A DNA stretch of 50,227 bases from a virus. Lineage: Duplodnaviria > Heunggongvirae > Uroviricota > Caudoviricetes. The position numbers and the translations under genes were made by a program. Below, in pieces: positions 13,378-48,724 of this stretch. Numbering within the stretch: position 1 is the first letter of the stretch; each line of letters starts with the position of its first letter. The stretch lies in IMG/VR virus record IMGVR_UViG_2529292913_000006; one strand, 5' to 3'. The notes under the pieces are model-generated. The model made no database searches. It saw nothing but the letters and a program-made list of their open reading frames with translations, and had not been told where the DNA came from.

Positions 13378-13761
13378 ATGCGTGATATTCAGATGGTTCT
13401 TGAGCGTTGGGGAGCGTGGGCGGCTAATAATCATGAAGATGTGACCTGGTCGTCCATTGCCGCCGGTTTTAAGGGATTAATTACTTCAAAAGTAAAATCT
13501 CGCCCGCAATGTTGTGACGATGACGCGATGATTATTTGCGGGTGCATGGCCCGTCTGAAAAAGAACAACAGCGATTTGCACGATTTATTAGTAGATTATT
13601 ATGTAGTCGGTATGACATTCATGTCACTGGCAGGTAAGCATTGCTGCTCTGATGGTTATATCGGGAAAAGGTTACAGAAGGCTGAGGGCATAATTGAAGG
13701 GATGTTAATGGCATTAGATATCCGGTTAGAGATGGATATCGTTGTTAATAACTCTAATTAA
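13378..13761 (+). CDS. Q: Late-gene antiterminator Q
   Basis: 127 aa ([22 protein letters not shown]...) recognised as the DLP12 QuuD-type Q; GGAG SD. Confidence 0.8.
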
Positions 13762-13949: not shown

Positions 13950-15032
13950 TTAGAACTGGTAAACCATACCTACAGCAACGATATCATCGGTAGCAACGCC
14001 AGATGCTTTCGTGAAATCGCTCTTATCAATCAGGTTGATTTTGTAATCAACAAAAGTGGACATATTTTTGTTGAAGTAATAGGTTGCACCTACATCAATA
14101 TATTCAACCAGGTCCTGATCACCCCACGCACCCAAGTCTTTTCCTTTAGATTGCAGGTAAGCAACGGACGGACGCAGACCGAAGTCGAACTGATATTGTG
14201 CAACTACTTCGAAGTTTTGTGCTTTGTTGGCAATATGGTTATTACCAAAAACAGTCATGTTCTGGGTTTCAGAATAGGTGGTAGCCAGATAGATGTTGTT
14301 CGCATCATATTTCAGACCAGCTGCCCATACTTCAGCATTTTGACCAGATGCATTCAGGCTGTTGTTACCGTAGATAACCTGATTATTAGTGCGGTCAGAT
14401 TTAGCATAGGTTGCACCTACACCGAATCCTTCATACTCATAAGTAGTGGAGAAACCGAAACCATCACCATTAGCTTCAGTTACGTCAGTGCGGTCATTTT
14501 TACCCTGATACTGAGCAGCAAAGTTCAGACCATCAACCAGACCAAAGAAGTCGTTGTTACGATAAGTTGCAACACCAGTGGTGCGACCAGTCATGAACAC
14601 ATCTGTTTGGGTCCAGGTATCGCCACCGAATTCTGGCAGAACGTCAGTCCACGCACCGATGTCATATGCTACACCGTAGTTACGGCCGTAATCGATTGAG
14701 CCGTAGTCCCCGAATTTCAGGCCTGCAAATGCAAGACGGGTTTTGTCTTTGGAGGAGCCTTGAGATTCAGCGCGGTTGCCTTTGAATTCATATTCCCACT
14801 GACCGAAACCAGTCAGTTGATCGTTGATTTGGGTTTCACCTTTGAAGCCAAGACGGGCATAAGTAGTATCACCATCATCTGCATCATTAGAGGAGAAGTA
14901 GTGCTTGGCATTAACTTTCCCATATAGATCCAGCTTGTTACTGTCTTTATTATAAATTTCAGCTGCCTGAGCAGACATCGCCATCAGTACTGATGCAGCT
15001 ACAGCAGAAATTGCCACTGTTAATTTTTTCAT
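13950..15032 (-). CDS. nmpC: OmpC/OmpF-family general porin (NmpC/Lc-type, prophage-encoded)
   Basis: 360 aa with signal peptide ([23 protein letters not shown]), porin hallmarks and C-terminal MVYQF; antisense between Q and the lysis cassette. Confidence 0.9.
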
Positions 15033-15605: not shown

Positions 15606-15821
15606 ATGAAATCCATGGATAAGTTAACAACGGGTGTCGCCTATGGCACCTCAGCAGGTAGTGCCGGTTACTGGTTTTTACAGCTGCTCGATAAAGTCAC
15701 GCCCTCACAGTGGGCAGCAATAGGTGTGCTGGGTAGCCTGGTATTTGGCCTGCTGACGTACCTGACAAACCTTTATTTCAAGATTAAAGAAGATAAGCGC
15801 AAGGCTGCGAGAGGTGAATAA
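15606..15821 (+). CDS. S: Class II holin (phage-21 S-type pinholin)
   Basis: 71 aa ([25 protein letters not shown]...); two TM segments; TAATG overlap with the endolysin. Confidence 0.9.
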
Positions 15822-16251
15822 TGCCTCCATCATTACGAAAAGCCGTTGCTGCTGCTATTGGTGGCGGAGCAATTGCTATAGCATCAGTGTTAATCACTGG
15901 CCCAAGTGGTAACGATGGTCTGGAAGGTGTCAGCTACATACCATACAAAGATATTGTTGGTGTATGGACTGTATGTCACGGGCATACAGGAAAAGACATC
16001 ATGCTCGGTAAAACGTATACCAAAGCAGAATGCAAAGCACTCTTGAATAAAGACCTTGCCACTGTCGCCAGACAAATTAACCCGTACATCGAAGTCGATA
16101 TACCGGAAACAACGCGCGGCGCTCTTTACTCATTCGTTTACAACGTGGGTGCTGGCAATTTAGACTGGCCCCCTGAATCTCCAGACAACCAATATCACTT
16201 ATTTAAGTGATAGTCTTAATACTAGTTTTTAGACTAGTCATTGGAGAGCAG

Positions 16252-16617
16252 ATGATTGATGTCTTAGGACCGGAGAAACGCAGACGGCGTACTACACAGG
16301 AAAAGATCGCTATTGTTCAGCAGAGTTTTGAACCGGGAATGACAGTCTCCCTTGTTGCCCGGCAACACGGTGTGGCAGCCAGCCAGTTATTTCTCTGGCG
16401 CAAGCAATACCAGGAGGGAAGTCTTACTGCTGTGGCCGCAGGAGAACAGGTCGTTCCTGCCTCTGAACTTGCTGCCGCCATGAAGCAGATTAAAGAACTC
16501 CAGCGCCTGCTCGGCAAAAAAACGATGGAAAATGAACTCCTTAAAGAAGCCGTTGAATATGGGCGTGCAAAAAAGTGGATAGCGCACGCGCCCTTATTGC
16601 CCGGGGATGGGGAGTAA
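16252..16617 (+). CDS. insC: IS2 transposase OrfA (InsC)
   Basis: 121 aa ([41 protein letters not shown]...); SD GGAGAG. Confidence 0.9.
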
Positions 16618-17480
16618 GCTTAGTCAGCCGTTGTCTCCGGGTGTCGCGTGCGCAGTTGCACGTCATTCTCAGACGAACCGATGACTGGAAAGATGGTCGC
16701 CGCAGCCGTCACTCAGATGATACGGATGTGCTTCTCCGTATACACCATGTTATCGGAGAGCTGCCCACATATGGTTATCGTCGGGTATGGGCGCTGCTTC
16801 GCAGACAGGCCGAACTTGATGGTATGCCTGCGATCAATGCCAAACGTATTTACCGGATCATGCGCCAGAATGCGCTGTTGCTTGAGCGAAAACCCGCTGT
16901 ACCGCCATCGAAACGGGCACATACCGGCAGAGTGGCTGTGAAAGAAAGTAATCAGCGATGGTGCTCTGACGGGTTCGAGTTCCGCTGTGATAACGGAGAA
17001 AAACTGCGAGTCACGTTCGCGCTGGACTGCTGTGACCGTGAGGCACTGCACTGGGCGGTCACTACGGGCGGCTTCAACAGTGAAACAGTACAGGACGTCA
17101 TGCTGGGAGCGGTGGAACGCCGTTTCGGCAACGAGCTTCCGGCGTCTCCAGTAGAGTGGCTGACGGATAATGGTTCATGCTACCGGGCTAATGAAACACG
17201 GCAGTTTGCCCGGATGTTGGGGCTTGAACCGAAGAACACGGCGGTGCGGAGTCCGGAGAGTAACGGCATAGCAGAGAGCTTCGTGAAAACGATAAAGCGT
17301 GACTACATCAGTGTCATGCCCAAACCAGACGGGTTAACGGCAGCAAAGAACCTTGCAGAGGCATTCGAGCATTATAACGAATGGCATCCGCATAGTGCAC
17401 TGGGTTATCGCTCGCCACGGGAATATCTACGGCAGCAAGCCAGTAATGGGTTAAGTGATAACAGGTGTCTGGAAATATAG
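16575..17480 (+). CDS. insD: IS2 transposase OrfB (InsD), DDE integrase core
   Basis: 301 aa overlapping insC in the -1 frame, the usual IS3-family arrangement. Confidence 0.9.
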
Positions 17481-17650
17481 GGGCAAATCCACAATTTCAG
17501 AACATCGACGCTTCTTCGCAAAATAAACCAGGGCGATATCAAAGGCGCATGTGATCAGCTACGTCGCTGGACATATGCTGGCGGTAAGCAATGGAAAGGT
17601 CTCATGACTCGTCGTGAGATTGAGCGTGAAATCTGTTTGTGGGGTCAGCA

Positions 17651-18112
17651 ATGAACAGAGTAACCGCGATTATCTCCGCTCTGGTTATCTGCATCATCGT
17701 CTGCCTGTCATGGGCTGTTAATCATTACCGTGATAACGCCATTACCTACAAAGCCCAGCGCGACAAAAATGCCAGAGAACTGAAGCTGGCGAACGCGGCA
17801 ATTACTGACATGCAGATGCGCCAGCGTGATGTTGCTGCACTGGATGAAAAATACACGAAGGAGTTAGCTAATGCGAAAGCTGAAAATGATGCTCTGCGTG
17901 ATGATGTTGCCGCTGGTCGTCGTCGGTTGCACATCAAAGCAGTCTGTCAGTCAGTGCGTGAAGCCACCACCGCCTCCGGCGTGGATAATGCAGCCTCCCC
18001 CCGACTGGCAGACACCGCTGAACAGGATTATTTCACCCTCAGAGAGAGGCTGATCACTATGCAAAAACAACTGGAAGGAACCCAGAAGTATATTAATGAG
18101 CAGTGCAGATAG
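17651..18112 (+). CDS. Rz: Spanin inner-membrane subunit Rz
   Basis: ATG 17651 overlaps the endolysin stop; N-terminal TM segment then coiled-coil region. Confidence 0.85.
17871..18053 (+). CDS. Rz1: Spanin outer-membrane lipoprotein Rz1 (embedded in Rz, +1 frame)
   Basis: 60 aa with lipobox (LVVVGC) and proline-rich body ([20 protein letters not shown]). Confidence 0.8.
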
Positions 18113-18143: not shown

Positions 18144-18437
18144 TTATTGTGAGCAATACACACGCGCTTCCAGCGGAGTATAAATGCCTAAAGTAATAAA
18201 ACCGAGCAATCCATTTACGAATGTTTGCTGGGTTTCTGTTTTAACAACATTTTCTGCGCCGCCACAAATTTTGGCTGCATCAACAGTTTTCTCCTGTCCA
18301 ATTCCCGAAACGAAGAAGTGATGGGTGATGGTTTCCTTTGGTGTTACTGCTGTCGGTTTGTTTCCAACAGTAAACGTCTGTTGAGCACATCCTGTAATAA
18401 GCATTGCCAGAGCGGCAGAAAACAACATTTTTTTCAT
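18144..18437 (-). CDS. bor: Bor lipoprotein (serum-resistance moron)
   Basis: 97 aa from ATG at 18437 (MKKMLFSAALAMLITGC...); antisense to the lysis genes as in lambda. Confidence 0.85.
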   Translation of the reverse strand: MKKMLFSAALAMLITGCAQQTFTVGNKPTAVTPKETITHHFFVSGIGQEKTVDAAKICGGAENVVKTETQQTFVNGLLGFITLGIYTPLEARVYCSQ

Positions 18438-19149: not shown

Positions 19150-19382
19150 TATTATCATTTTGCGGGTCCTTTCCGGCGATCCGACAGGTTACGGGGCGGC
19201 GACCTCGCGGGTTTTCGCTATTTATGAAAAATTTCCGGTTTAAGGCGTTTCCGTTCTTCTTCGTCATAACTTAATGTTTTTATTTAAAATACCCTCTGAA
19301 AAGAAAGGAAACGACAGGTGCTGAAAGCGAGCTTTTTGGCCTCTGTCGTTTCCTTTCTCTGTTTTTGTCCGTGGAATGAACA
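19150..19382. other. cos site region (cosQ-cosN-cosB); cohesive-end sequence GGGCGGCGACCT at 19194-19205
   Basis: Recognised lambda terminal sequences: ...CCGACAGGTTACG followed by GGGCGGCGACCTCGCGGGTTTTCGCTATTTATGAAAA...; directly upstream of Nu1. Confidence 0.8.
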
Positions 19383-19902
19383 ATGGAAGTCAACAAAAAG
19401 CAGCTGGCTGACATTTTCGGTGCGAGTATCCGTACCATTCAGAACTGGCAGGAACAGGGAATGCCCGTTCTGCGAGGCGGTGGCAAGGGTAATGAGGTGC
19501 TTTATGACTCTGCCGCCGTCATAAAATGGTATGCCGAAAGGGATGCTGAAATTGAGAACGAAAAGCTGCGCCGGGAGGTTGAAGAACTGCGGCAGGCCAG
19601 CGAGGCAGATCTCCAGCCAGGAACTATTGAGTACGAACGCCATCGACTTACGCGTGCGCAGGCCGACGCACAGGAACTGAAGAATGCCAGAGACTCCGCT
19701 GAAGTGGTGGAAACCGCATTCTGTACTTTCGTGTTGTCGCGGATCGCAGGTGAAATTGCCAGTATTCTCGACGGGCTCCCCCTGTCGGTGCAGCGGCGTT
19801 TTCCGGAACTGGAAAACCGACATGTTGATTTCCTGAAACGGGATATTATCAAAGCCATGAACAAAGCAGCCGCGCTGGATGAACTGATACCGGGGTTGCT
19901 GA

Positions 19903-19928
<26 letters not shown>
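19383..19928 (+). CDS. nu1: Terminase small subunit Nu1
   Basis: 181 aa recognised as lambda Nu1 (MEVNKKQLADIFGASIRTIQNWQEQGMPV...). Confidence 0.95.
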
Positions 19929-23609
<3,681 letters not shown>

Positions 23610-23629
<20 letters not shown>

Positions 23630-24929
23630 TCTCCCGCATATTGCCAGCATGGCTTTTAATGAGCCGCTGATGCTTGAACCCGCCTATGCGCGGGTTTTCT
23701 TTTGTGCGCTTGCAGGCCAGCTTGGGATCAGCCGCCTGACGGATGCGGTGTCCGGCGACAGCCTGACTGCCCAGGAGGCACTCGCGACGCTGGCATTATC
23801 CGGTGATGATGACGGACCACGACAGGCCCGCAGTTATCAGGTCATGAACGGCATCGCCGTGCTGCCGGTGTCCGGCACGCTGGTCAGCCGGACGCGGGCG
23901 CTGCAGCCGTATTCGGGGATGACCGGTTACAACGGCATTATCGCCCGTCTGCAACAGGCTGCCAGCGATCCGATGGTGGACGGCATTCTGCTGGATATGG
24001 ACACACCGGGCGGGATGGTGGCGGGAGCATTTGACTGTGCTGACATCATCGCCCGTGTGCGAGACATAAAACCGGTATGGGCGCTGGCCAACGACATGAA
24101 CTGCAGTGCAGGTCAGCTGCTTGCCAGCGCCGCCTCCCGGCGTCTGGTCACGCAGACCGCCCGGACAGGCTCCATCGGCGTCATGATGGCTCACAGTAAT
24201 TACGGTGCTGCGCTGGAGAAACAGGGCGTGGAAATCACGCTGATTTACAGCGGCAGCCATAAGGTGGATGGCAACCCCTACAGCCATCTACCGGATGATG
24301 TCCGGGAAACACTGCAGTCCCGGATGGATGCAACCCGCCGGATGTTTGCACAGAAGGTGTCGGCATATACCGGCCTGTCCGTGCAGGCTGTGCTGGATAC
24401 CGAGGCTGCAGTGTACAGCGGTCAGGAGGCCATTGATGCCGGACTGGCTGATGAACTTGTGAACAGTACCGATGCGATCACCGTCATGCGTGATGCACTG
24501 GATGCACGTAAATCCCGTCTCTCAGGAGGGCGAATGACCAAAGAGACTCAATCAACAACTGTTTCAGCCACTGCTTTGCAGGCTGACGTTACTGGCGTAG
24601 TGCAAGCGACGGAGGGCGAGAACGCCAGCGCTGCGCAGCCGGACGTGAACGCGCAGATCACCGCAGCGGTTGCGGCAGAAAACAGTCGCATTATGGGGAT
24701 CCTCAACTGTGAGGAGGCTCACGGACGCGAAGAACAGGCATGCGTGCTGGCCGAAACCCCCGGTATGACCGTGGAAACGGCCCGCCGTATTCTGGCCGCA
24801 GCACCACAGAGTGCACAGGCGCGCAGTGACACTGCGCTGGATCGTCTGATGCAGGGGGCACCGGCACCGCTGGCTGCAGGTAACCCGGCATCTGATGCCG
24901 TTAACGATTTGCTGAACACACCAGTGTAA
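23610..24929 (+). CDS. C: Head maturation protease C
   Basis: GTG start at 23610 (MTAELRNLPHIASMAFNEPLMLEPAYARVFF...), 439 aa. Confidence 0.9.
24324..24929 (+). CDS. nu3: Scaffold protein Nu3 (in-frame internal start within C)
   Basis: In-frame ATG at 24324 at the position expected from lambda gene organisation. Confidence 0.5.
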   Translation: MDATRRMFAQKVSAYTGLSVQAVLDTEAAVYSGQEAIDAGLADELVNSTDAITVMRDALDARKSRLSGGRMTKETQSTTVSATALQADVTGVVQATEGENASAAQPDVNAQITAAVAAENSRIMGILNCEEAHGREEQACVLAETPGMTVETARRILAAAPQSAQARSDTALDRLMQGAPAPLAAGNPASDAVNDLLNTPV

Positions 24930-24938
24930 GGGATGTTT

Positions 24939-25271
24939 ATGACGAGCAAAGAAACCTTTACCCATTACCAGCCGCTGGGCAACAGTGACCCGGCTCATAC
25001 CGCAACCGCGCCCGGCGGGTTGAGTGCGAAAGCGCCTGCAATGACCCCGCTGATGCTGGACACCTCCACCCGTAAGCTGGTTGCGTGGGATGGCACCACC
25101 GACGGTGCTGCCGTTGGCATTCTTGCAGTTGCTGCTGACCAGACCAGCACCACACTGACGTTCTACAAGTCCGGCACGTTCCGTTATGAGGATGTGCTCT
25201 GGCCGGAGGCTGCCAGCGACGAGACGAAAAAACGGACCGCGTTTGCCGGAACGGCAATCAGCATCGTTTAA
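24939..25271 (+). CDS. D: Head decoration protein D
   Basis: 110 aa ([27 protein letters not shown]...) matching lambda gpD. Confidence 0.9.
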
Positions 25272-25326
25272 CCTGACCCTTCATCACTAAAGGCCGCCTG
25301 TGCGGCTTTTTTTACGGGATTTTTTT

Positions 25327-26352
25327 ATGTCGATGTACACAACCGCCCAGCTGCTGGCGGCAAATGAGCAGAAATTTAAGTTTGATCCGCTGTTTCTGCG
25401 TCTCTTTTTCCGTGAGAGCTATCCCTTCACCACGGAAAAAGTCTATCTCTCACAAATTCCTGGACTGGTAAACATGGCGCTGTACGTTTCGCCAATTGTT
25501 TCCGGTGAGGTTATCCGTTCCCGTGGCGGCTCCACCTCTGAATTTACGCCGGGTTATGTCAAGCCGAAGCATGAGGTGAATCCGCAGATGACCCTGCGTC
25601 GCCTGCCGGATGAAGATCCGCAGAATCTGGCGGACCCGGCTTACCGCCGCCGTCGCATCATCCTGCAGAACATGCGTGACGAAGAGCTGGCCATTGCTCA
25701 GGTCGAAGAGATGCAGGCAGTTTCTGCCGTGCTCAAGGGCAAATACACCATGACCGGTGAAGCCTTCGATCCGGTTGAGGTGGATATGGGCCGCAGTGAG
25801 GCGAATAACATCACGCAGTCCGGCGGCACGGAGTGGAGCAAGCGTGACAAGTCCACGTATGACCCGACCGACGATATCGAAGCCTACGCGCTGAACGCCA
25901 GCGGTGTGGTGAATATCATCGTGTTTGATCCGAAAGGCTGGGCGCTGTTCCGTTCCTTCAAAGCCGTCAAGGAGAAGCTGGATACCCGTCGCGGCTCTCA
26001 TTCCGAGCTGGAGACAGCGGTAAAAGACCTGGGCAAAGCGGTGTCCTATAAGGGAATGTATGGCGATGTGGCCATCGTCGTGTATTCCGGACAGTACGTG
26101 GAAAACGGCGTCAAAAAGAACTTCCTGCCGGACAACACGATGGTGCTGGGGAACACTCAGGCTCGCGGTCTGCGCACCTATGGCTGCATTCAGGATGCGG
26201 ACGCACAGCGCGAAGGCATTAACGCCTCTGCCCGTTACCCGAAAAACTGGGTGACTACCGGCGATCCGGCGCGTGAGTTCACCATGATTCAGTCAGCACC
26301 GCTGATGCTGCTGGCTGATCCTGATGAGTTCGTGTCCGTTCAACTGGCGTAA
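25327..26352 (+). CDS. E: Major capsid protein E
   Basis: 341 aa from ATG 25327 (MSMYTTAQLLAANEQKFKFDPLF...). Confidence 0.95.
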   Translation: MSMYTTAQLLAANEQKFKFDPLFLRLFFRESYPFTTEKVYLSQIPGLVNMALYVSPIVSGEVIRSRGGSTSEFTPGYVKPKHEVNPQMTLRRLPDEDPQNLADPAYRRRRIILQNMRDEELAIAQVEEMQAVSAVLKGKYTMTGEAFDPVEVDMGRSEANNITQSGGTEWSKRDKSTYDPTDDIEAYALNASGVVNIIVFDPKGWALFRSFKAVKEKLDTRRGSHSELETAVKDLGKAVSYKGMYGDVAIVVYSGQYVENGVKKNFLPDNTMVLGNTQARGLRTYGCIQDADAQREGINASARYPKNWVTTGDPAREFTMIQSAPLMLLADPDEFVSVQLA

Positions 26353-26393
26353 TCATGGCCCTTCGGGGCCATTTTCTCTCTGTGGAGGAGTTC

Positions 26394-26789
26394 ATGACGA
26401 AAGATGAACTGATTGCCCGTCTTCAGGTGCTGGGTGAGCAACTGAACCGTGATGTCAGCCTGACGGGGACGAAAGAAGAACTGGTGCTCCGTGTGGCAGA
26501 GCTGGAAGAGGAGCTTGATGACACGGATGACGCTGCCGGTCAGGACACATCTGTCAGCCCGGAAAATGCGCTGACCGGACATGAAAATGAGGTGGTATCA
26601 GCGCAGCCGGATACCGTGATTGATACGGCTGCTCTGGTCACGGTTGTGGCACTGGTGACGCTGCATACTGATGCACTTCACGCCACGCGGGATGAGCCTG
26701 TGGCATTTGTGCTGCCGGGAACGGCGTTTCGTGTCTCTGCCGGTGTGGCAGCCGAAATGACAGAACATGGCCTGGCCAGAATGCAATAA
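26394..26789 (+). CDS. FI: DNA packaging protein FI
   Basis: ATG 26394 with GGAGG SD; lambda FI-like (MTKDELIARLQVLGEQLNRDVSLTG...). Confidence 0.85.
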   Translation: MTKDELIARLQVLGEQLNRDVSLTGTKEELVLRVAELEEELDDTDDAAGQDTSVSPENALTGHENEVVSAQPDTVIDTAALVTVVALVTLHTDALHATRDEPVAFVLPGTAFRVSAGVAAEMTEHGLARMQ

Positions 26790-26800
26790 CGGGAGGCGCT

Positions 26801-27154
26801 GTGGCTGATTTCGATAACCTGTTCGATGCTGCCATTGCCCGCGCCGATGAAACGATACGCGGGTACATGGGAACGTCAGCCACCATGACATCCGGTGAGC
26901 AGTCAGGTGCGGTGATACGTGGTGTTTTTGATGACCCTGAAAATATCAGCTATGCCGGACAGGGCGTGCGCGTTGAAGGCTCCAGCCCGTCCCTGTTTGT
27001 CCGGACTGATGATGTGCGGCAGCTGCGGCGTGGAGACACACTGACCATCGGCGAGGAAAACTTCTGGGTGGACCGGATTTCGCCGGATGATGGCGGAAGC
27101 TGTCATCTCTGGCTTGGGCGTGGCGTGCCGCCTGCCGTTAACCGTCGCCGCTGA
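26801..27154 (+). CDS. FII: Head completion protein FII
   Basis: 117 aa, GTG start with GGGAGG SD. Confidence 0.85.
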   Translation: MADFDNLFDAAIARADETIRGYMGTSATMTSGEQSGAVIRGVFDDPENISYAGQGVRVEGSSPSLFVRTDDVRQLRRGDTLTIGEENFWVDRISPDDGGSCHLWLGRGVPPAVNRRR

Positions 27155-27165
27155 AAGGGGGATGT

Positions 27166-27744
27166 ATGGCCATAAAAGGTCTTGAGCAGGCCGTTGAAAA
27201 CCTCAGCCGTATCAGCAAAACGGCGGTGCCTGGTGCCGCCGCAATGGCCATTAACCGCGTTGCGTCATCCGCGATATCGCAGTCGGCGTCACAGGTTGCC
27301 CGTGAGACAAAGGTACGCCGGAAACTGGTAAAGGAAAGGGCCAGGCTGAAAAGGGCCACGGTCAAAAATCCGCAGGCCAGAATCAAAGTTAACCGGGGGG
27401 ATTTGCCCGTAATAAAGCTGGGTAACGCGCGGGTTGTCCTGTCCCGACGCAGGCGTCGTAAAAAGGGGCAGCGTTCAGCCCTGAAAGGTGGCGGCAGTGT
27501 GCTTGTGGTGGGAAACCGTCGTATTCCCGGCACGTTTATTCAGCAACTGAAAAACGGCCGGTGGCATGTTATGCAGCGTGTGGCCGGGAAAAACCGTTAC
27601 CCCATTGATGTAGTGAAAATCCCGATGGCGGTGCCGCTGACCACGGCGTTTAAACAGAATATTGAACGGATACGGCGTGAACGTCTTCCGAAAGAGCTGG
27701 GCTATGCGCTGCAGCATCAACTGAGGATGGTAATAAAGCGATGA
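27166..27744 (+). CDS. Z: Tail completion protein Z
   Basis: 192 aa, lambda order. Confidence 0.85.
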   Translation: MAIKGLEQAVENLSRISKTAVPGAAAMAINRVASSAISQSASQVARETKVRRKLVKERARLKRATVKNPQARIKVNRGDLPVIKLGNARVVLSRRRRRKKGQRSALKGGGSVLVVGNRRIPGTFIQQLKNGRWHVMQRVAGKNRYPIDVVKIPMAVPLTTAFKQNIERIRRERLPKELGYALQHQLRMVIKR

Positions 27745-28136
27745 AACATACTGAACTCCGTGCAGCCGTACTGGATGCACTGGAGAAGCATGACACCGGG
27801 GCGACGTTTTTTGATGGTCGCCCCGCTGTTTTTGATGAGGCGGATTTTCCGGCAGTTGCCGTTTATCTCACCGGCGCTGAATACACGGGCGAAGAGCTGG
27901 ACAGCGATACCTGGCAGGCGGAGCTGCATATCGAAGTTTTCCTGCCTGCTCAGGTGCCGGATTCAGAGCTGGATGCGTGGATGGAGTCCCGGATTTATCC
28001 GGTGATGAGCGATATCCCGGCACTGTCAGATTTGATCACCAGTATGGTGGCCAGCGGCTATGACTACCGGCGCGACGATGATGCGGGCCTGTGGAGTTCA
28101 GCCGATCTGACTTATGTCATTACCTATGAAATGTGA
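27741..28136 (+). CDS. U: Tail terminator protein U
   Basis: 131 aa, ATGA overlap with Z. Confidence 0.85.
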
Positions 28137-28143
28137 GGACGCT

Positions 28144-28884
28144 ATGCCTGTACCAAATCCTGTAATGCCGGTGAAAGGTGCCGGGACCACCCTGTGGGTT
28201 TATAAGGGGAGCGGTGACCCTTATGCGAATCCGCTTTCAGACGTTGACTGGTCGCGTCTGGCAAAAGTTAAAGACCTGACGCCCGGCGAACTGACCGCTG
28301 AGTCCTATGACGACAGCTATCTCGATGATGAAGATGCAGACTGGACTGCGACCGGGCAGGGGCAGAAATCTGCCGGAGATACCAGCTTCACGCTGGCGTG
28401 GATGCCCGGAGAGCAGGGGCAGCAGGCGCTGCTGGCGTGGTTTAATGAAGGCGATACCCGTGCCTATAAAATCCGCTTCCCGAACGGCACGGTCGATGTG
28501 TTCCGTGGCTGGGTCAGCAGTATCGGTAAGGCGGTGACGGCGAAGGAAGTGATCACCCGCACGGTGAAAGTCACCAATGTGGGACGTCCGTCGATGGCAG
28601 AAGATCGCAGCACGGTAACAGCGGCAACCGGTATGACCGTGACGCCAGCCAGCGCTTCCGTAGTGAAAGGGAAGAGCACCACGCTGACCGTGGCATTCCA
28701 GCCGGAAGGCGCAACCGACAAGAGCTTCCGTGCGGTGTCAGCGGATAAAACAAAAGCCACCGTGTCGGTCAGTGGTATGACCATCACCGTGAATGGCGTT
28801 GCTGCAGGTAAGGTCAACATTCCGGTCGTATCCGGTAATGGTGAGTTTGCTGCGGTTGCAGAAATCACCGTCACCGCCAGTTAA
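28144..28884 (+). CDS. V: Major tail protein V
   Basis: 246 aa from ATG 28144 ([22 protein letters not shown]...); C-terminal Ig-like domain. Confidence 0.9.
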
Positions 28885-28899
28885 TCCGGAGAGTCAGAG

Positions 28900-29322
28900 A
28901 TGTTCCTGAAAACCGAATCATTTGAACATAACGGCGTGACCGTCACGCTTTCTGAACTGTCAGCCCTGCAGCGTATTGAGCATCTCGCCCTGATGAAACG
29001 GCAGGCAGAACAGGCGGAGTCAGACAGCAACCGGCAGGTTACTGTGGAAGACGTCATCAGAACCGGTGCTTGTGTGGTGGCGATGTCCCTGTGGCATAAC
29101 CATCCGAAGAAGACGCAGATGCCGTCCATGAATGAAGCCGTTAAACAGATTGAGCAGGAAGTGCTTACCACCTGGCCTACAGAGGCAATTTCTCATGCTG
29201 AAAACGTGGTGTACCGGCTGTCCGGTATGTATGAGTTTGTGGTGAATGATGCCCCTGAACAGGCAGAGGACGCTGGGCCTGCAGAGCCTGTTTCTGCGGG
29301 AAAGTGTTCGACGGTGAGCTGA
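28900..29322 (+). CDS. G: Tail assembly chaperone G
   Basis: 140 aa, lambda order. Confidence 0.85.
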   Translation: MFLKTESFEHNGVTVTLSELSALQRIEHLALMKRQAEQAESDSNRQVTVEDVIRTGACVVAMSLWHNHPKKTQMPSMNEAVKQIEQEVLTTWPTEAISHAENVVYRLSGMYEFVVNDAPEQAEDAGPAEPVSAGKCSTVS

Positions 29323-29738
29323 GTTTTGCCCTGAAACTGGCGCGCGAGATGGGGCGACCCGACTGGCGTGCCATGCTTGCCGGGATGTCATCCACGGAGT
29401 ATGCCGACTGGCACCGCTTTTACAGTACCCATTATTTTCATGATGTTCTGCTGGATATGCACTTTTCCGGGCTGACGTACACCGTGCTCAGCCTGTTTTT
29501 CAGCGATCCGGATATGCATCCGCTGGATTTCAGTCTGCTGAACCGGCGTGAGGCTGACGAAGAGCCTGAAGATGATGTGCTGATGCAGAAAGCGGCAGGG
29601 CTTGCCGGAGGCGTTCGTTTTGGCCCGGACGGGAATGAAGTTATCCCCGCTTCCCCGGATGTGGCGGACATGACGGAGGATGACGTAATGCTGATGACAG
29701 TATCAGAAGGGATCGCAGGAGGAGTCCGGTATGGCTGA
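28900..29738 (+). CDS. T: Tail assembly chaperone G-T fusion via programmed -1 frameshift
   Basis: Slippery heptamer GGGAAAG at 29298-29304 near the G 3' end; T frame open from 29304 to 29738. Confidence 0.7.
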
Positions 29739-32310
29739 ACCGGTAGGCGATCTGGTCGTTGATTTAAGTCTGGATGCGGCCAGATTTGACGAGCAGATGG
29801 CCAGAGTCAGGCGTCATTTTTCCGGTACGGAAACTGATGCGAAAAAAACAGCGGCAGTCGTTGAACAGTCGCTGAGCCGACAGGCGCTGGCTGCACAGAA
29901 AGCGGGGATTTCCGTCGGGCAGTATAAAGCCGCCATGCGTATGCTGCCTGCACAGTTCACCGACGTGGCCACGCAGCTTGCAGGCGGGCAAAGTCCGTGG
30001 CTGATCCTGCTGCAACAGGGTGGTCAGGTTAAGGACTCCTTCGGCGGGATGATCCCCATGTTCAGGGGGCTTGCCGGTGCGATCACCCTGCCGATGGTGG
30101 GGGCCACCTCGCTGGCGGTGGCGACCGGTGCGCTGGCGTATGCCTGGTATCAGGGCAACTCAACCCTGTCCGATTTCAACAAAAGGCTGGTCCTTTCCGG
30201 CAATCAGGCGGGACTGACGGCAGATCGTATTCTGGCCCTGTCCAGAGCCGGGCAGGCGGCAGGGCTGACGTTTAACCAGACCAGCGAGTCACTGACGGCG
30301 CTGGTGAATGCCGGTGTGCGTGGTGGTGAGCAGTTTGAGGCGATCAGCCAGAGTGTGGCGCGTTTCTCCTCTGCATCCGGCGTGGAGGTGGACAAGGTCG
30401 CTGAAGCCTTCGGGAAGCTGACCACAGACCCGACGTCGGGACTGACAGCGATGGCACGTCAGTTCCATAACGTGACGGCGGAGCAGATTGCGTATGTTGC
30501 TCAGTTGCAGCGTTCCGGAGATGAAGCCGGGGCATTGCAGGCGGCGAACGAGGCCGCAACGAAAGGGTTTGATGACCAGACCCGCCGCCTGAAAGAGAAC
30601 ATGGGCACGCTGGAGACCTGGGCAGACAGGACAGCACGGGCATTCAAATCCATGTGGGATTCGGTGCTGGATATTGGTCGCCCGGACACTGCCCAGGGAA
30701 TGCTGGAGAAAGCAGAAAAGGCTTTTGATGAGGCGGACAAAAAATGGCAGTGGTATCAGAGCCGGAGCCACCGGCGCGGTAAAACCTCAGCATTTCTTGC
30801 CAATCTCCGGGGAGCATGGGAGGACAGAGCGAATGCGCAACTTGGGCTTTCAGCCGCCACGTTGCAGGCCGATCTTGAAAAGGCCAGAGAGATGGCAGCA
30901 AAGGACTGGGCCGAGTCTGAGGCATCACGGCTGAAATATACCGAAGAGGCGCAGAAGGCTTACGAACGCCTGCAGACGCCGCTGGAGAAATATACCGCCC
31001 GTCAGGAAGAACTGAACAAGGCACTGAAAGACGGGAAAATCCTGCAGGCAGATTACAACACGCTGATGGCGGCGGCGAAAAAGGATTATGAAGCGACGCT
31101 GAAAAAGCCGAAACAGTCCGGCGTGAAAGTGTCTGCGGGCGATCGTCAGGAAGACAGTGCTCATGCTGCCCTGCTGACGCTTCAGGCTGAACTCCGGACG
31201 CTGGAGAAGCATGCCGGAGCAAATGAGAAAATCAGCCAGCAGCGCCGGGATTTGTGGAAGGCGGAGAGTCAGTTCGCGGTACTGGAGGAGGCGGCGCAAC
31301 GTCGCCAGCTGTCCGCACAGGAGAAATCCCTGCTGGCGCATAAAGATGAGACGCTGGAGTACAAACGCCAGCTGGCTGCACTTGGCGACAAGGTTACGTA
31401 TCAGGAGCGCCTGAACGCGCTGGCGCAGCAGGCGGATAAATTCGCACAGCAGCAACGGGCAAAACGGGCCGCCATTGATGCGAAAAGCCGGGGGCTGACT
31501 GACCGGCAGGCAGCGCGGGAAGCCACGGAACAGCGCCTGAAGGAACAGTATGGCGATAATCCGCTGGCGCTGAATAACGTCATGTCAGAGCAGAAAAAGA
31601 CCTGGGCGGCTGAAGACCAGCTTCGCGGGAGCTGGATGGCAGGCCTGACGTCCGGCTGGAGTGAGTGGGAAGAGAGCGCCACGGACAGTATGTCGCAGGT
31701 AAAAAGTGCAGCCACGCAGACCTTTGATGGTATTGCACAGAATATGGCGGCGATGCTGACCGGCAGTGAGCAGAACTGGCGCAGCTTCACCCGTTCCGTG
31801 CTGTCCATGATGACAGAAATTCTGCTTAAGCAGGCAATGGTGGGGATTGTCGGGAGTATCGGCAGCGCCATTGGCGGGGCTGTTGGTGGCGGCGCATCCG
31901 CGTCAGGCGGTACAGCCATTCAGGCCGCTGCGGCGAAATTCCATTTTGCAACCGGAGGATTTACGGGAACCGGCGGCAAATATGAGCCAGCGGGGATTGT
32001 TCACCGTGGTGAATTTGTCTTCACAAAGGAGGCAACCAGCCGGATTGGCGTGGGGAATCTCTACCGGCTGATGCGCGGCTATGCCACCGGTGGTTATGTC
32101 GGTACACCGGGCAGTCTGGCTGACAGCCGATCGCAGGCGTCCGGGACGTTTGAGCAGAATAACCATGTGGTGATTAACAACGACGGCACGAACGGGCAGA
32201 TAGGTCCGGCTGCTCTGAAGGCGGTGTATGACATGGCCCGCAAGGGTGCCCGTGATGAAATTCAGACACAGATGCGTGATGGTGGACTGTTCTCCGGAGG
32301 TGGACGATGA
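29731..32310 (+). CDS. H: Tail tape measure protein H
   Basis: 859 aa, Ala/Gln-rich coiled region; about 6 aa longer than lambda H as recalled. Confidence 0.9.
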   Translation: MAEPVGDLVVDLSLDAARFDEQMARVRRHFSGTETDAKKTAAVVEQSLSRQALAAQKAGISVGQYKAAMRMLPAQFTDVATQLAGGQSPWLILLQQGGQVKDSFGGMIPMFRGLAGAITLPMVGATSLAVATGALAYAWYQGNSTLSDFNKRLVLSGNQAGLTADRILALSRAGQAAGLTFNQTSESLTALVNAGVRGGEQFEAISQSVARFSSASGVEVDKVAEAFGKLTTDPTSGLTAMARQFHNVTAEQIAYVAQLQRSGDEAGALQAANEAATKGFDDQTRRLKENMGTLETWADRTARAFKSMWDSVLDIGRPDTAQGMLEKAEKAFDEADKKWQWYQSRSHRRGKTSAFLANLRGAWEDRANAQLGLSAATLQADLEKAREMAAKDWAESEASRLKYTEEAQKAYERLQTPLEKYTARQEELNKALKDGKILQADYNTLMAAAKKDYEATLKKPKQSGVKVSAGDRQEDSAHAALLTLQAELRTLEKHAGANEKISQQRRDLWKAESQFAVLEEAAQRRQLSAQEKSLLAHKDETLEYKRQLAALGDKVTYQERLNALAQQADKFAQQQRAKRAAIDAKSRGLTDRQAAREATEQRLKEQYGDNPLALNNVMSEQKKTWAAEDQLRGSWMAGLTSGWSEWEESATDSMSQVKSAATQTFDGIAQNMAAMLTGSEQNWRSFTRSVLSMMTEILLKQAMVGIVGSIGSAIGGAVGGGASASGGTAIQAAAAKFHFATGGFTGTGGKYEPAGIVHRGEFVFTKEATSRIGVGNLYRLMRGYATGGYVGTPGSLADSRSQASGTFEQNNHVVINNDGTNGQIGPAALKAVYDMARKGARDEIQTQMRDGGLFSGGGR

Positions 32311-32636
32311 AAACCTTCCGCTGGAAAGTGAAACCCGGTATGGATGTGGCTTCGGCCCCTTCTGTAAGAAAGGTGCGCTTTGGTGATGGCTATTCCCAGC
32401 GAGCGCCTGCCGGGCTGAATGCCAACCTGAAAACGTACAGCGTGACGCTTTCTGTCCCCCGTTGGGAGGCCACGGCGCTGGAGTCGTTTCTGGAAGAGCA
32501 CGGGGGCTGGAAAGCCTTTCTGTGGACGCCGCCTTATGAGTGGCGGCAGATAAAGGTGACTTGCGCAAAATGGTCGTCGCGGGTCAGTATGCTGCGTGTT
32601 GAGTTCAGCGCAGAGTTTGAACAGGTGGTGAACTGA
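32307..32636 (+). CDS. M: Tail tip protein M
   Basis: 109 aa, ATGA overlap with H. Confidence 0.85.
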   Translation: MKTFRWKVKPGMDVASAPSVRKVRFGDGYSQRAPAGLNANLKTYSVTLSVPRWEATALESFLEEHGGWKAFLWTPPYEWRQIKVTCAKWSSRVSMLRVEFSAEFEQVVN

Positions 32637-33334
32637 TGCAGGATATCCGACAGGAAACACTGAATGAATGCACCCGTGCGGAGCAGTCGGCCAGCGTGGT
32701 GCTCTGGGAAATCGACCTGACAGAGGTCGGTGGAGAACGTTATTTTTTCTGTAATGAGCAGAACGATAAAGGTGAGCCGGTCACCTGGCAGGGGCGACAG
32801 TATCAGGCGTATCCCATTCAGGGGACGGGATTTGAACTGAACGGCAAAGGCAGTGCTGCCCGTCCGACACTGACGGTTTCTAACCTGCACGGCATGGTCA
32901 CCGGGATGGCGGAAGATCTGCAGAGTCTGGTCGGCGGAACGGTGGTCCGGCGTAAGGTTTACGCCCGTTTTCTGGATGCGGTGAACTTCGTCAACGGAAA
33001 CAGTGACGCCGATCCGGAGCAGGAGGTGATCAGCCGCTGGCGCATTGAGCAGTGCAGCGAACTGAGCGCGGTGAGTGCCTCTTTTGTACTGTCCACGCCG
33101 ACGGAAACGGACGGCGCTGTTTTTCCGGGACGTATCATGCTGGCCAACACCTGCACCTGGACCTATCGCGGCGATGAGTGCGGTTATCACGGTCCGGCGG
33201 TCGCGGATGAATATGACCAGCCAACGTTCGATATCACGAAGGATAAATGCAGCAAATGCCTGAGTGGCTGTAAGTTTCGCAATAACGTCGGCAACTTTGG
33301 CGGCTTCCTTTCCATTAACAAACTTTCGCAGTAA
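32636..33334 (+). CDS. L: Tail tip protein L
   Basis: 232 aa, TGATG overlap with M. Confidence 0.85.
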   Translation: MQDIRQETLNECTRAEQSASVVLWEIDLTEVGGERYFFCNEQNDKGEPVTWQGRQYQAYPIQGTGFELNGKGSAARPTLTVSNLHGMVTGMAEDLQSLVGGTVVRRKVYARFLDAVNFVNGNSDADPEQEVISRWRIEQCSELSAVSASFVLSTPTETDGAVFPGRIMLANTCTWTYRGDECGYHGPAVADEYDQPTFDITKDKCSKCLSGCKFRNNVGNFGGFLSINKLSQ

Positions 33335-33338
33335 TCCC

Positions 33339-34082
33339 ATGACAGAGACAGAATCAGCGATTCTGGCGCACGCCCGGCGATGTGCGCCAGCGGAGTCGTG
33401 CGGCTTCGTGGTGAGAACGCCGGAGGGGGAAAGATATTTTCCCTGCGTGAATATTTCCGGTGAGCCGGAGGATTATTTCCGGATGGCTCCGGAGGACTGG
33501 CTGCAGGCAGAAATGCAGGGTGAGATTGTGGCGCTGGTCCACAGCCACCCCGGTGGTCTGCCCTGGCTGAGTGAGGCCGACCGGCGGCTGCAGGTGCAGA
33601 GTGATTTGCCGTGGTGGCTGGTCTGCCGGGGGACGATTCATAAGTTCCGCTGTGTGCCGCATCTCACCGGGCGGCGCTTTGAGCACGGTGTGACGGACTG
33701 TTACACACTGTTCCGGGATGCTTATCATCTGGCGGGGATTGAGATGCCGGACTTTCATCGTGAGGATGACTGGTGGCGTAACGGCCAGAATCTCTATCTG
33801 GATAATCTGGAGGCGACGGGGCTGTATCAGGTGCCGTTGTCAGCGGCACAGCCGGGCGATGTGCTGCTGTGCTGTTTTGGTTCATCGGTGCCGAATCACG
33901 CCGCAATTTACTGCGGCGACGGCGAGCTGCTGCACCATATTCCTGAACAACTGAGCAAACGAGAGAGGTACACCGACAAATGGCAGCGACGCACACACTC
34001 CCTCTGGCGTCACCGGGCATGGCGCGCATCTGCCTTTACGGGGATTTACAACGATTTGGTCGCCGCATCGACCTTCGTGTGA
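33339..34082 (+). CDS. K: Tail tip assembly protein K (MPN/JAMM plus NlpC/P60 domains)
   Basis: ATG 33339 (MTETESAILAHARRC...); JAMM motif HSHPGG...SEAD; the lambda annotation as recalled starts at the internal Met equivalent to 33483. Confidence 0.8.
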   Translation: MTETESAILAHARRCAPAESCGFVVRTPEGERYFPCVNISGEPEDYFRMAPEDWLQAEMQGEIVALVHSHPGGLPWLSEADRRLQVQSDLPWWLVCRGTIHKFRCVPHLTGRRFEHGVTDCYTLFRDAYHLAGIEMPDFHREDDWWRNGQNLYLDNLEATGLYQVPLSAAQPGDVLLCCFGSSVPNHAAIYCGDGELLHHIPEQLSKRERYTDKWQRRTHSLWRHRAWRASAFTGIYNDLVAASTFV

Positions 34083-34651
34083 AAACGGGGGCTGAAGCCA
34101 TCCGGGCACTGGCCACACAGCTCCCGGCGTTTCGTCAGAAACTGAGCGACGGCTGGTATCAGGTACGGATTGCCGGGCGGGACGTCAGCACGTCCGGGTT
34201 GACGGCGCAGTTACATGAGACTCTGCCTGATGGCGCTGTGATTCATATTGTTCCCAGAGTCGCCGGGGCCAAGTCAGGTGGCGTATTCCAGATTGTCCTG
34301 GGAGCAGCCGCCATTGCCGGATCATTCTTTACTGCCGGAGCCACCCTTGCAGCATGGGGGGCAGCCATTGGGGCCGGTGGTATGACCGGCATCCTGTTTT
34401 CTCTCGGTGCCAGTATGGTGCTCGGTGGTGTGGCGCAGATGCTGGCACCGAAAGCCAGGACGCCCACGGCAGCCAGTACAGATAACGGCAAACAGAACAC
34501 GTATTTCTCGTCACTGGATAACATGGTTGCCCAGGGCAATGTTCTGCCTGTTCTGTACGGGGAAATGCGCGTGGGATCACGTGTGGTTTCTCAGGAGATC
34601 AGCACGGCAGACGAAGGGGATGGTGGTCAGGTTGTGGTGATTGGTCGCTGA
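33980..34651 (+). CDS. I: Tail tip assembly protein I
   Basis: 223 aa overlapping the K 3' end as in lambda. Confidence 0.85.
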   Translation: MAATHTLPLASPGMARICLYGDLQRFGRRIDLRVKTGAEAIRALATQLPAFRQKLSDGWYQVRIAGRDVSTSGLTAQLHETLPDGAVIHIVPRVAGAKSGGVFQIVLGAAAIAGSFFTAGATLAAWGAAIGAGGMTGILFSLGASMVLGGVAQMLAPKARTPTAASTDNGKQNTYFSSLDNMVAQGNVLPVLYGEMRVGSRVVSQEISTADEGDGGQVVVIGR

Positions 34652-34669
34652 TGCAAAACATTTTATGTG

Positions 34670-34692
34670 AAACCGCCTGCGGGCGGTTTTGT
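34670..34692 (+). terminator. Hairpin between I and J
   Basis: AACCGCC-TGCG-GGCGGTT followed by TTTT. Confidence 0.4.
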
Positions 34693-34711
34693 CGTTTATG
34701 GAGCGTGACGA

Positions 34712-37700: not shown

Positions 37701-38125
37701 TTGTTAAAACAGTATCCAAATCATTCCCGAAAAAGGCTGGTACGTGGGGTAACACGGAAACACCAGACGGGACGGTTACAGTCACCATCAGCGATGATCA
37801 TAACTTTGACCGTCAAATCATTATTCCGCCCATTATCTTTAACGGTATAGCGTATGACGATCCGGGAAGTGGTGATAACCCGGGAGGTACAAGGTACACG
37901 GGGTATGGTTTTGAAGTTCGCAAAAACGGCGTATTAATCGCATCCAGAGAAACTAAAGGGGCCATTCCCGGTAGTTACAGTGCGGTTATTGATATGCCGA
38001 GTGGCAGGGGAAGCGTCACTCTGGAGTTTAAGATTTTCCAGAAAGGCAATCAGGGGGCAGGCAATATCACCGACTGTACGGTGATTGTGACCAAAAAGGC
38101 TGCTTCCGGCATCAGTATTCGTTGA
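34712..38125 (+). CDS. J: Central tail fibre / host specificity protein J
   Basis: 1137 aa, lambda J-like over its length. Confidence 0.9.
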
Positions 38126-48701: not shown

Positions 48702-48724
48702 TCTCTCCATGTGTTAAATATTGA

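Follow-up and report, generated by a model that had tools for sequence, protein, structure and literature searches.

The analysed window, a stretch of 50,227 nt of tailed-phage DNA (IMG/VR record IMGVR_UViG_2529292913_000006), carries a lysis cassette of the phage-21 type. Its first gene is an intact pinholin gene, essD/S21 (15606..15821, + strand; Pfam Phage_holin_2_1, PF04971, 2e-35), an ORF of 71 codons with the features of a class II holin of the S21 type: the protein begins MKSM with the M1...M4 dual start, and the gene adjoins that for the SAR endolysin. The endolysin gene, rrrD, is present on the same strand in two pieces. The 5′ fragment (15821..16160) ends after 340 nt, i.e. after codon 113 plus 1 nt, and the 3′ fragment (17497..17654), which covers the remainder of codon 114 and all that follows up to the stop codon, is not translatable alone. 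An IS2 isoform of 1331 bp (16161..17491, +) with its transposase co-directional with the late operon separates the two, and the 5-bp target-site duplication CAATT flanks it on the left (16156-16160) and on the right (17492-17496). The stop codon of rrrD overlaps the start codon of Rz (ATGA). The Rz spanin gene is intact (17651-18112, +; Pfam Phage_lysis, PF03245, 5.8e-54), as is the Rz1 lipoprotein gene embedded in it in the +1 frame (17871-18053, +; Pfam Rz1, PF06085, 9.3e-20); the Rz1 lipobox is LVVVGC, as expected of a two-component spanin.

Removal in silico of the IS along with one CAATT produced an in-frame ORF of 498 nt (165 aa), an exact restoration that bears out the claim of the preliminary description that the SAR endolysin gene is split after codon 113. 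The restored ORF matches Pfam Phage_lysozyme (PF00959, 2.8e-45); its product is identical to RrrD (PDB 4ZPU) at 163 of 165 positions and matches R21 (3HDE) over the full length (E=9.6e-111), and many genomes carry an intact rrrD with exactly the same DNA sequence (100% identity). The window contains 52 copies of the pentamer CAATT, and the chance of a 5-bp repeat alone is 1 in 1024; the insertion is unequivocal because a known ORF is exactly restored, which goes beyond the 5-bp repeat alone.

The interrupted ORF runs through 16 IS-encoded codons to a stop at 16210 inside IS2, and the resulting 129-aa fragment is the sole possible rrrD product. With the Pfam lysozyme domain at residues 34-156, the cut at 113 takes away its last ~43 positions; residues 114-165, missing from the 129-aa product, make up about a third (~35%) of the GH24 lysozyme domain. 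The Gly/Ala-rich N-terminal SAR segment (residues 8-26) is kept, as are E35, D44 and T50, read from the translation. We take E35-D44-T50 to be the catalytic triad, the roles of the SAR segment and the triad being known from R21 (PDB 3HDE). The gene, split at nt 340, is thereby a pseudogene of the R21/RrrD family rather than an uninterrupted SAR endolysin gene. RefSeq annotates the fragments as ‘lysozyme RrrD, missing C-terminus’ and ‘missing N-terminus’ in the genomes of CV839-06 and ETEC1731. The event is of a known kind and the pseudogene status is already in RefSeq; no specific earlier account of rrrD::IS2 turned up in the literature searched.

The cassette resembles that of phage 21 and DLP12 (PDB 3HDE, 3HDF, 4ZPU) in gene order and protein families, and the layout of Q, reverse-strand porin, S, R, Rz/Rz1 and bor is as in DLP12. 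It differs in that R is split here by an IS; moreover, DLP12 is a remnant, whereas the cassette of the window is part of a prophage of full length, inserted at icd and equipped with structural genes of the lambda type.

The IS2 element

The element has TAGACTGGCC at its 5′ end and GGCAAATCCA at its 3′ end; the terminal inverted repeats are imperfect in an IRL/IRR alignment, and the ends are of the TA/TG...CA form. The gene orfA/insC (16252-16617) encodes an HTH_Tnp_1 domain and orfB/insD (16575-17480) the rve/DDE domains (Pfam), with an A6G slippery site, AAAAAAG, at 16569. Overlapping HTH and DDE/rve reading frames with predicted −1 frameshifting at A6G place the element in the IS3 family.

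The reference copy, IS2A of E. coli K-12 (IS3 family, IS2 group; NC_000913.3 381260-382590), has the same length, 5-bp duplication, terminal sequences, InsC, rve domain and orfA/orfB organization with the A6G −1 frameshift site. Where the two differ is in 58 substitutions, spread over IS positions 42 to 1305 of an ungapped alignment (95.64% nucleotide identity), and in nine amino acid changes in InsD (292/301 identical); InsC is identical. By the ISfinder convention, isoforms share ≥95% nucleotide identity with the reference IS2, a threshold that the element passes barely. We thus confirm a complete 1331-bp IS2 with CAATT on both sides, as first described, all coordinates included, and would add on the grounds of nucleotide identity that it is a diverged isoform. 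Since copies at least 99% identical to it are found in 393 records, this subtype is distinct and widespread. The PGAP label for it is merely ‘IS3 family transposase’, and in CV839-06 PGAP annotated the frameshifted IS2 transposase as intact.

[quoted passage not shown] Copies of the IS 100% identical to that of the window are present at 11 other places in the genome of CV839-06, 20 in ETEC1731 and 7 in ETEC1747. Multi-copy elements are the usual source of assembly errors, and misplacement of a repeated IS2 copy into rrrD was considered for this reason. The probability of such an artefact is close to nil: the 5-bp duplication is perfect, the gene is restored in frame, and the same junctions are seen in the window and in the assemblies of CV839-06 (PacBio plus Illumina, PMC5824013) and ETEC1731, which different laboratories made independently from long-read or hybrid data. 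Misassembly, named at the outset as a way in which the description could fail, is excluded by these junctions.

The prophage outside rrrD

The integrase gene (1-1143, −; WP_000741338.1) and the excisionase gene (1133-1369, −; WP_000088653.1) are full-length ORFs; both proteins are common to CV839-06, ETEC1731 and ETEC1747, and int/xis are as in phage 4A7. The late antiterminator gene Q (13378..13761, +; Pfam Phage_antitermQ, 4e-53) is of the quuD type and is named quuD in RefSeq. Between Q and the lysis cassette lies a cargo gene for a porin of the OmpC/Lc type (13950..15032, −; Pfam Porin_1, 3e-153), annotated as ompC in relatives, and another cargo gene encodes the bor/iss serum-survival lipoprotein (18144..18437, −; Pfam Lambda_Bor, 6.4e-31; RefSeq iss). 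A lambda-type cohesive-end sequence, GGGCGGCGACCT (19194..19205, +), is situated 189 bp upstream of Nu1. In the lambda-type morphogenetic block from Nu1 to J (19383..38125, +), which includes the G/T slippery site GGGAAAG at 29298, every ORF is full length. Over 99% of its length, the block shares 97% identity with those of ev207, 434 and lambda h434 imm21, all viable lambdoid phages, whose structural genes it resembles. The claim of intact holin, Rz/Rz1 and morphogenetic genes thus stands.

The attR region (48543..48754, +) is a 212-bp duplicate of the 3′ end of icd, matching the icd 3′ end of ETEC1731 at 209/212 positions. With attL located just left of the window, the distance from attL to attR is 48,814 bp, the IS included. 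Lambda heads package up to ~51 kb of DNA, and a genome of ~48.8 kb would fit. Present at the sequence level are int, xis, the att duplication at icd, CI (S24 peptidase), O, P, Q, cos, terminase and the head and tail genes. Apart from rrrD, the gene and site content is that of a seemingly complete prophage of ~48.8 kb at icd. The description ‘otherwise intact prophage’ needs a minor qualification, as near attR there is a tail-fibre-assembly (tfa) fragment as well as a pin recombinase pseudogene, both old remnants. The cargo genes (porin, iss/bor, lom, acyltransferase, McrBC-like) are intact.

The early region resembles that of Bievrevirus 4A7, 1W and 3W (96% identity over 73% of int-Q), with the same layout of int, xis, CI, cro, cII and O/P. 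Unlike its viable relatives, the prophage of the window has DUF4411 and ImmA/IrrE genes beside CI, an orphan methyltransferase gene, an e14-like right end with McrBC-like genes, and IS2 in R. Neither Pfam nor PHROGs searches revealed an N-like ORF in the 478 bp without annotation that separate kil from the DUF4411 gene (5161-5638). A missing N antiterminator was considered as a hidden defect and dropped, given that viable 4A7 has the same layout, also with no annotated N. No known RNA families were detected in the window at gathering thresholds.

Lysis by other means was also considered: either residual activity of the truncated endolysin or the endolysin of another prophage might still allow this prophage to lyse its host. 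The truncated product does keep the SAR domain and E35/D44/T50, and E. coli genomes usually have several prophages. We consider this very unlikely, given the loss of a third of the GH24 domain and the need for co-induction of another phage in any complementation in trans. Furthermore, no second lysozyme was found in the prophage among RefSeq names or by Pfam analysis of the hypothetical proteins, K and the tail fibre; K is a tail protein with NlpC/P60 and JAB domains and the tail fibre has an S74 chaperone, neither being a lysis enzyme. A query with the 2.4-kb cassette hit a single place in CV839-06 and a single place in ETEC1731, leaving no second P21-type cassette in either host genome. A second functional endolysin, the other finding that could have overturned the first description, was therefore not encountered in the annotation of the prophage or as a P21-type cassette in these two hosts. 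With rrrD split and no second lysozyme there, the prophage has no functional holin-endolysin-spanin system of its own.

Distribution of the allele and recurrent IS2 insertion in rrrD and Rz

Among 5,426 complete E. coli genomes the exact rrrD::IS2 allele was found in two, CV839-06 and ETEC1731, which are near-clonal porcine ETEC; the window is 99.98% identical to each of them. A sibling strain, ETEC1747, has the same prophage with an intact rrrD free of the IS, the flanks being 99.96% and 99.90% identical; this supplies the comparison with an IS-free relative that had been suggested. The insertion is confined to one porcine ETEC lineage. The sequence data support the view that it is recent, as originally proposed, because the duplication is perfect, the transposase is intact, the restored ORF equals live alleles and the sibling prophage is free of the IS. 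Related copies of the prophage carry lesions of different types: IS1 and internal stops in H and J in CV839-06, a stop in J in ETEC1747, and a large deletion plus IS3 in AR_0369. ETEC1731 differs from the window by 1-bp indels. As neither genome matches it exactly, the window stems from a third source, near-clonal with these two.

Insertions of IS2-family elements in P21-type cassettes are not limited to this lineage. Of the insertions listed, at least 12 events in 14 genomes map to rrrD and Rz, where they occupy ten different positions; two more IS2 copies lie beyond the Rz region, on its downstream side. In the other strains, each of the 14 related IS2 copies of full length is flanked by a 5-bp duplication. 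The CAATT site of the window, rrrD nt 336-340, received at least three independent IS2 hits, involving different IS2 subtypes, both orientations and different prophages, a pattern that points to an IS2 hotspot in rrrD. Strain 400660 has IS2 at CAATT with the same duplication and in the opposite orientation, while PK8566 has a canonical IS2 (99.8% identical to IS2A) at CAATT in a prophage different from that of the window. Two hits fell on the site CAACG, and two of the sites in Rz are offset by 1 bp.

An alternative explanation of the shared CAATT insertions is a single ancestral event spread by prophage recombination, with the IS homogenised later, in which case there would be no independent hits on a hotspot. 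Transfer of an allele by homologous recombination is possible, as the rrrD flanks are very similar among prophages, and CH4804 and 2EC1 do share both the CAACG site and the prophage context. Descent, however, cannot yield the reversed insertion of 400660 with the same duplication, and the IS2 copies of PK8566 and the window differ markedly in their identity to IS2A (99.8% vs 95.6%), with the 58 differences spanning positions 42-1305 and with different prophages around them. A single origin is therefore unlikely.

That different subtypes of IS2 have repeatedly struck the same pentanucleotide offers a small, concrete handle on IS2 target choice. Targeting by resemblance to the inverted repeats was rejected as a cause: the local alignment score of a 75-bp target segment against IS2 IRL/IRR was 8, compared with a cassette-wide mean of 8.6, i.e. 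no enrichment. The ten distinct pentanucleotides duplicated in rrrD and Rz showed no evident consensus when compared. Mutation-accumulation data revealed no sequence motif in IS2 target choice (PMC5009759). As a tentative idea, to which we give a rather low probability, the rrrD-Rz segment of phage-21-type cassettes may hold true IS2 hotspots. In that case E. coli lineages would lose lysis repeatedly and at a high rate, turning lambdoid prophages release-defective, with convergent knock-outs perhaps favoured at the population level.

Likely course and consequences of the insertion

Taken as a whole, the locus is very probably explained by a recent IS2 transposition into codon 114 of rrrD in a complete lambdoid prophage at icd of a porcine ETEC, best seen as a step of decay that was neutral or nearly so, and not as a selected disarming. 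A resident IS2-type element would have moved into the codon with the usual 5-bp duplication, possibly helped by a local IS2 target preference in an IS2-rich genome. SOS induction would be expected to lead to excision, replication and the assembly of virions. RNA polymerase modified by Q should read past the IS and transcribe Rz/Rz1 as well as the head and tail genes, because the modified enzyme is resistant to terminators. The pinholin would then trigger and the cell would die by depolarisation; with no muralytic enzyme the wall would stay intact, the spanins would be unable to act and the virions would be trapped. The full set of genes and sites combined with the split endolysin makes it sound to infer, as the preliminary description did, a phage able to excise, replicate and assemble but not to lyse normally. 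The IS may, however, exert some polarity on Rz/Rz1 and the structural genes, and loss of R-Rz translational coupling could lower spanin levels. Complementation in trans is conceivable as well, by a non-homologous endolysin of a further, co-induced prophage in the same host.

The same description saw a domestication step that disarms killing, and here our reading departs from it. Pinholins kill by collapse of the proton motive force, for which endolysin is not needed (PMC9636201). As the pinholin is intact, the induced cell should still die; losing R should block lysis and virion release, not death of the cell, and there is no obvious gain for an individual lysogen. Adaptive domestication, in which the insertion is selected for stopping lysis and release while useful cargo is kept, would be consistent with the intact cargo genes and with the recurrence of IS2-family insertions in rrrD and Rz of P21-type cassettes, and the DLP12-type lysis module has host-side roles, changes in which can give a phenotype (PMC7918800). 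A selected defective prophage would be expected to show a lesion conserved across a clade or some other mark of selection, yet no such mark is seen: the allele is confined to the two near-clonal genomes, ETEC1747 lacks it, and relatives of the same prophage decay through quite different lesions. Moreover, selection would accept any disrupting position, whereas re-use of the exact pentanucleotide points to target preference. We consider adaptive domestication quite unlikely for this allele; for the IS2 insertions elsewhere in or beside rrrD and Rz of other genomes, some selection for lysis-defective prophages is possible.

Decay by transposition into codon 114 fits the general picture of IS-mediated prophage decay (reviewed in PMC6379469) and the prophage domestication literature that PMC13548323 cites. 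As in the ‘grounding’ of lambdoid prophages in E. coli O157 and Shigella, or the IS5 in nmpC of DLP12, a host IS inactivates one prophage gene and the rest persists. The present case differs from these in that a single hit, on a phage complete in other respects, has struck the endolysin gene and not int/xis, att or regulatory genes, and therefore release should be blocked rather than induction or host killing.

The locus itself is of little significance, as one more IS-inactivated prophage gene. The rrrD::IS2 strains ETEC1731 and CV839-06, together with rrrD+ ETEC1747, nevertheless constitute a clean natural pair, 99.9% identical over the compared region, that could show how a SAR-endolysin null in a wild lambdoid prophage affects induction, death of the host and release of virions.

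IS2 insertion in the endolysin gene

The endolysin gene of the prophage, rrrD (gene R, for a SAR endolysin of the phage-21 type), starts at 15821 and is interrupted past nt 340, i.e. codon 113 plus one base, by a 1331-bp element (16161-17491) situated between two copies of CAATT (16156-16160 and 17492-17496). In layout as well as in the position of the cut (about codon 113) the region reads as the preliminary description had it. The element begins with TAGACTGGCCCCC, ends with GGGGCAAATCCA and has imperfect terminal inverted repeats; it carries orfA (16252-16617, Pfam HTH_Tnp_1) and, overlapping it, orfB (16575-17480; HTH_21, rve and rve_3), with the slippery motif AAAAAAG at 16569. A gapless alignment with IS2A of E. 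coli K-12 gave 95.64% identity (58 substitutions), with InsC identical and InsD identical at 292 of 301 positions. By convention 95% identity defines an IS isoform; the element is therefore an IS2 isoform barely inside the limit, and this is probably the reason why PGAP names its product ‘IS3 family transposase’ rather than IS2. The sequence represents a distinct IS2 subtype, with copies at least 99% identical in 393 records of chromosomes and plasmids.

A 5-bp repeat by itself is weak evidence of transposition, as the window has 52 CAATT sites. In silico deletion of the IS with one CAATT, however, produced a 498-nt ORF. Its product matches Pfam Phage_lysozyme (residues 34-156, E=2.8e-45), is identical to the solved RrrD (4ZPU) at 163 of 165 residues and matches R21 (3HDE) over the full length (E=9.6e-111); at the DNA level the restored gene is 100% identical to intact rrrD of many E. 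coli genomes. That a known gene is restored exactly and in frame settles the matter: the insertion is real.

Downstream of the junction the truncated ORF runs through 16 IS-encoded codons to a stop at 16210, and the 3′ fragment of rrrD has no start codon of its own. The sole translatable product retains the SAR segment (residues about 8-26) together with E35, D44 and T50, and lacks residues 114-165, roughly the final third of the GH24 domain; RefSeq already flags the gene as a pseudogene. A promoter-like sequence, TTTACA-18-TAGACT (16137-16166), straddles the left junction, with the −35 element within rrrD, the −10 element from the first IS2 bases and direction into the transposase genes; it matches at 9 of 12 positions only, and promoter-like sites show no enrichment in the region.

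Occurrence, age and repeated use of insertion sites

We ran a 400-bp probe over the left junction against 5,426 complete E. coli genomes. Full-length matches with 100% identity were found in two of them only: CV839-06, a piglet ETEC vaccine strain with an assembly from PacBio and Illumina data (PMC5824013), and ETEC1731, a Belgian pig-faecal strain. Over the compared regions the window shows 99.98-99.99% identity to these genomes and is identical to neither (the ETEC1731 prophage has 1-bp indels). Placement of IS2 by misassembly, a possibility raised in the preliminary description, is excluded, as the same junctions are present in three independent sequences.

Strain ETEC1747 belongs to the Belgian pig collection that includes ETEC1731; its copy of the prophage, also at icd, has an intact rrrD (WP_001135274.1). 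RefSeq protein accessions are shared with the window almost gene for gene, and the flanks of the insertion site are 99.96% (left, 16.2 kb) and 99.90% (right, 20.2 kb) identical. Copies 100% identical to the window IS exist elsewhere in CV839-06, ETEC1731 and ETEC1747, where IS2-like sequences occupy 11, 20 and 7 places, respectively. The near-identical IS-free prophage of ETEC1747, the identical IS copies, the perfect duplication and an intact transposase together indicate that a resident copy recently transposed here by copy-and-paste, after the lineage had split from ETEC1747-like relatives; the earlier suggestion of a recent event is thus supported.

Junction probes in both orientations identified further genomes in which an IS2-family element lies within or next to rrrD or Rz; 13 of the further genomes listed were mapped, giving 15 loci with CV839-06 and ETEC1731. 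The CAATT at rrrD nt 336-340 is the target of the variant IS2 in the window lineage (+ orientation, icd prophage), of a canonical IS2 (99.8% identical to IS2A, + orientation) in a prophage adjoining trkG in PK8566, and of a canonical IS2 in − orientation in 400660. The last insertion does not derive from the window's event, since the duplication is the same and the orientation is opposite. These junctions indicate at least three independent insertions at the CAATT of rrrD, involving different prophages, more than one IS2 subtype and either orientation. CAACG at rrrD nt 290-294 was hit twice (variant IS2 in CH4804, canonical in 2EC1), and two targets in Rz, CCGTG (variant in FACU2024) and ACCGT (canonical in EPSSH018), are 1 bp apart.

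If 12 events, assumed independent, were distributed uniformly over about 800 positions, the probability of a triple hit would be about 4e-4; under the same assumption the probability of at least four coincident pairs would be about 2e-5. The target region is unlike the ends of IS2, and the duplicated pentanucleotides compared share no visible consensus, in agreement with PMC5009759, where IS2 showed no target motif. The pattern indicates a local IS2 target preference, or hotspot, in rrrD, which would partly explain why this gene was hit in the window lineage. In PSJ-16 (2767-5433) we observed a nested arrangement: an outer IS2 in rrrD (duplication GCTAC) is split by an inner IS2, full length and from another subtype (duplication ATCAG).

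Completeness of the prophage

The preliminary description called the prophage otherwise intact; this holds at the sequence level, except for e14-like tfa and pin remnants. The window contains a lambdoid prophage inserted at icd. The integrase (1-1143) and excisionase (1133-1369) genes are followed by exo, bet and gam (recombination), kil and a CI-type repressor (7416-8108) that includes an autocleavage domain of the S24 family. Genes resembling cro and CII and those for replication, O and P, come next, and the early region ends with the nin region and a quuD-type Q (13378-13761). After an OmpC/Lc-type porin gene on the reverse strand (13950-15032), an S21-type pinholin gene (15606-15821) directly precedes the split endolysin gene, beyond which are Rz (17651-18112), Rz1 (17871-18053) and bor/iss (18144-18437, minus strand). 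The lambda cos sequence GGGCGGCGACCT is at 19194, 189 bp upstream of Nu1, and all ORFs from Nu1 to J (19383-38125) are full length, with the G/T slippery site present at 29298. The right end, past J, holds lom, a long tail-fibre gene (S74 chaperone domain) and 41 codons of a tail-fibre-assembly gene, followed by an acyltransferase gene, a pin recombinase pseudogene, an McrBC-like pair and attR, where the 3′ end of icd is duplicated over 212 bp (48543-48754). The attL-attR distance, IS included, is 48,814 bp, within the lambda packaging range.

Viable phages resemble both the structural and the early region of the prophage: ev207, 434 and lambda h434 imm21 are 97% identical to Nu1-J over 99% of its length, and the Bievrevirus phages 4A7, 1W and 3W are 96% identical to the early region over 73% of its length, with the same arrangement of int, xis, CI, cro, cII and O/P. 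No N gene is annotated by RefSeq in the prophage, and neither an N-like ORF nor an Rfam match was found in the unannotated 478-bp gap (5161-5638) that separates kil from the accessory genes on the CI side. We rejected the missing N as a lesion, since viable phage 4A7 has the same gap; phages of this type may use an unannotated or N-independent device for early antitermination.

Three further features were observed. The site that rexAB occupies in lambda, immediately downstream of CI (5639-7287, minus strand), has genes for a DUF4411 protein and a 379-aa ImmA/IrrE (M78) metallopeptidase, the latter with weak PADLOC matches to capP and RmrA; they may be a defence or regulatory pair expressed in the lysogen, and phage 4A7 has other genes at this spot. 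The e14-like right end (42184-48754), which closes with an McrB-like AAA ATPase, McrC and the icd′ duplicate, looks like the remains of an older element that had integrated at icd and was retained in the present prophage. A strong terminator-like hairpin on the late-operon strand (15461-15482, AAACCCGCCGTCGAGCGGGTTT followed by a T-run), located past the antisense porin gene and 124 bp upstream of the pinholin start, could be a tR′-type terminator overridden by Q.

Predicted effect on lysis and decay of related prophages

No second lysozyme is annotated in the prophage, and a 2.4-kb probe covering the entire P21-type cassette detected one place only per carrier genome. The split rrrD and the lack of another annotated lysozyme support the earlier prediction of a prophage that would be lysis-defective yet otherwise complete. 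The pinholin/SAR-endolysin pathway is established (PMC9636201). By analogy, an induced cell would still build up pinholin, which would trigger and dissipate the proton motive force; without a muralytic enzyme the wall would stay intact, the spanins would be unable to fuse the membranes, and progeny would be trapped in a dead cell. Q-modified polymerase is terminator-resistant, so transcription should cross the IS and continue into Rz/Rz1 and the genes for structural proteins. Any R-Rz translational coupling would be lost, since the Rz start codon overlaps the stop of R (ATGA, 17651-17654).

The insertion had been proposed as a domestication step that disarms killing. Neither part of this proposal is supported: loss of R would block release, not death of the induced cell, and the allele is limited to a small lineage, whose relatives' prophages decay by unrelated lesions. 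The CV839-06 prophage has an extra IS1 between P and ybcN and internal stops in H (tape-measure) and J; the ETEC1747 prophage has an internal stop in J; in the related prophage of AR_0369 a deletion fuses the terminase region with J, an IS3 lies close to xis, and the replication region has been replaced. Some of these internal stops may be sequencing errors. IS-mediated prophage decay has been reviewed as a general process (PMC6379469); the event in the window follows its ordinary pattern, and rrrD::IS2 is a further example of a well-known kind of event. The rrrD::IS2 and rrrD+ strains constitute a natural pair that can be used experimentally.
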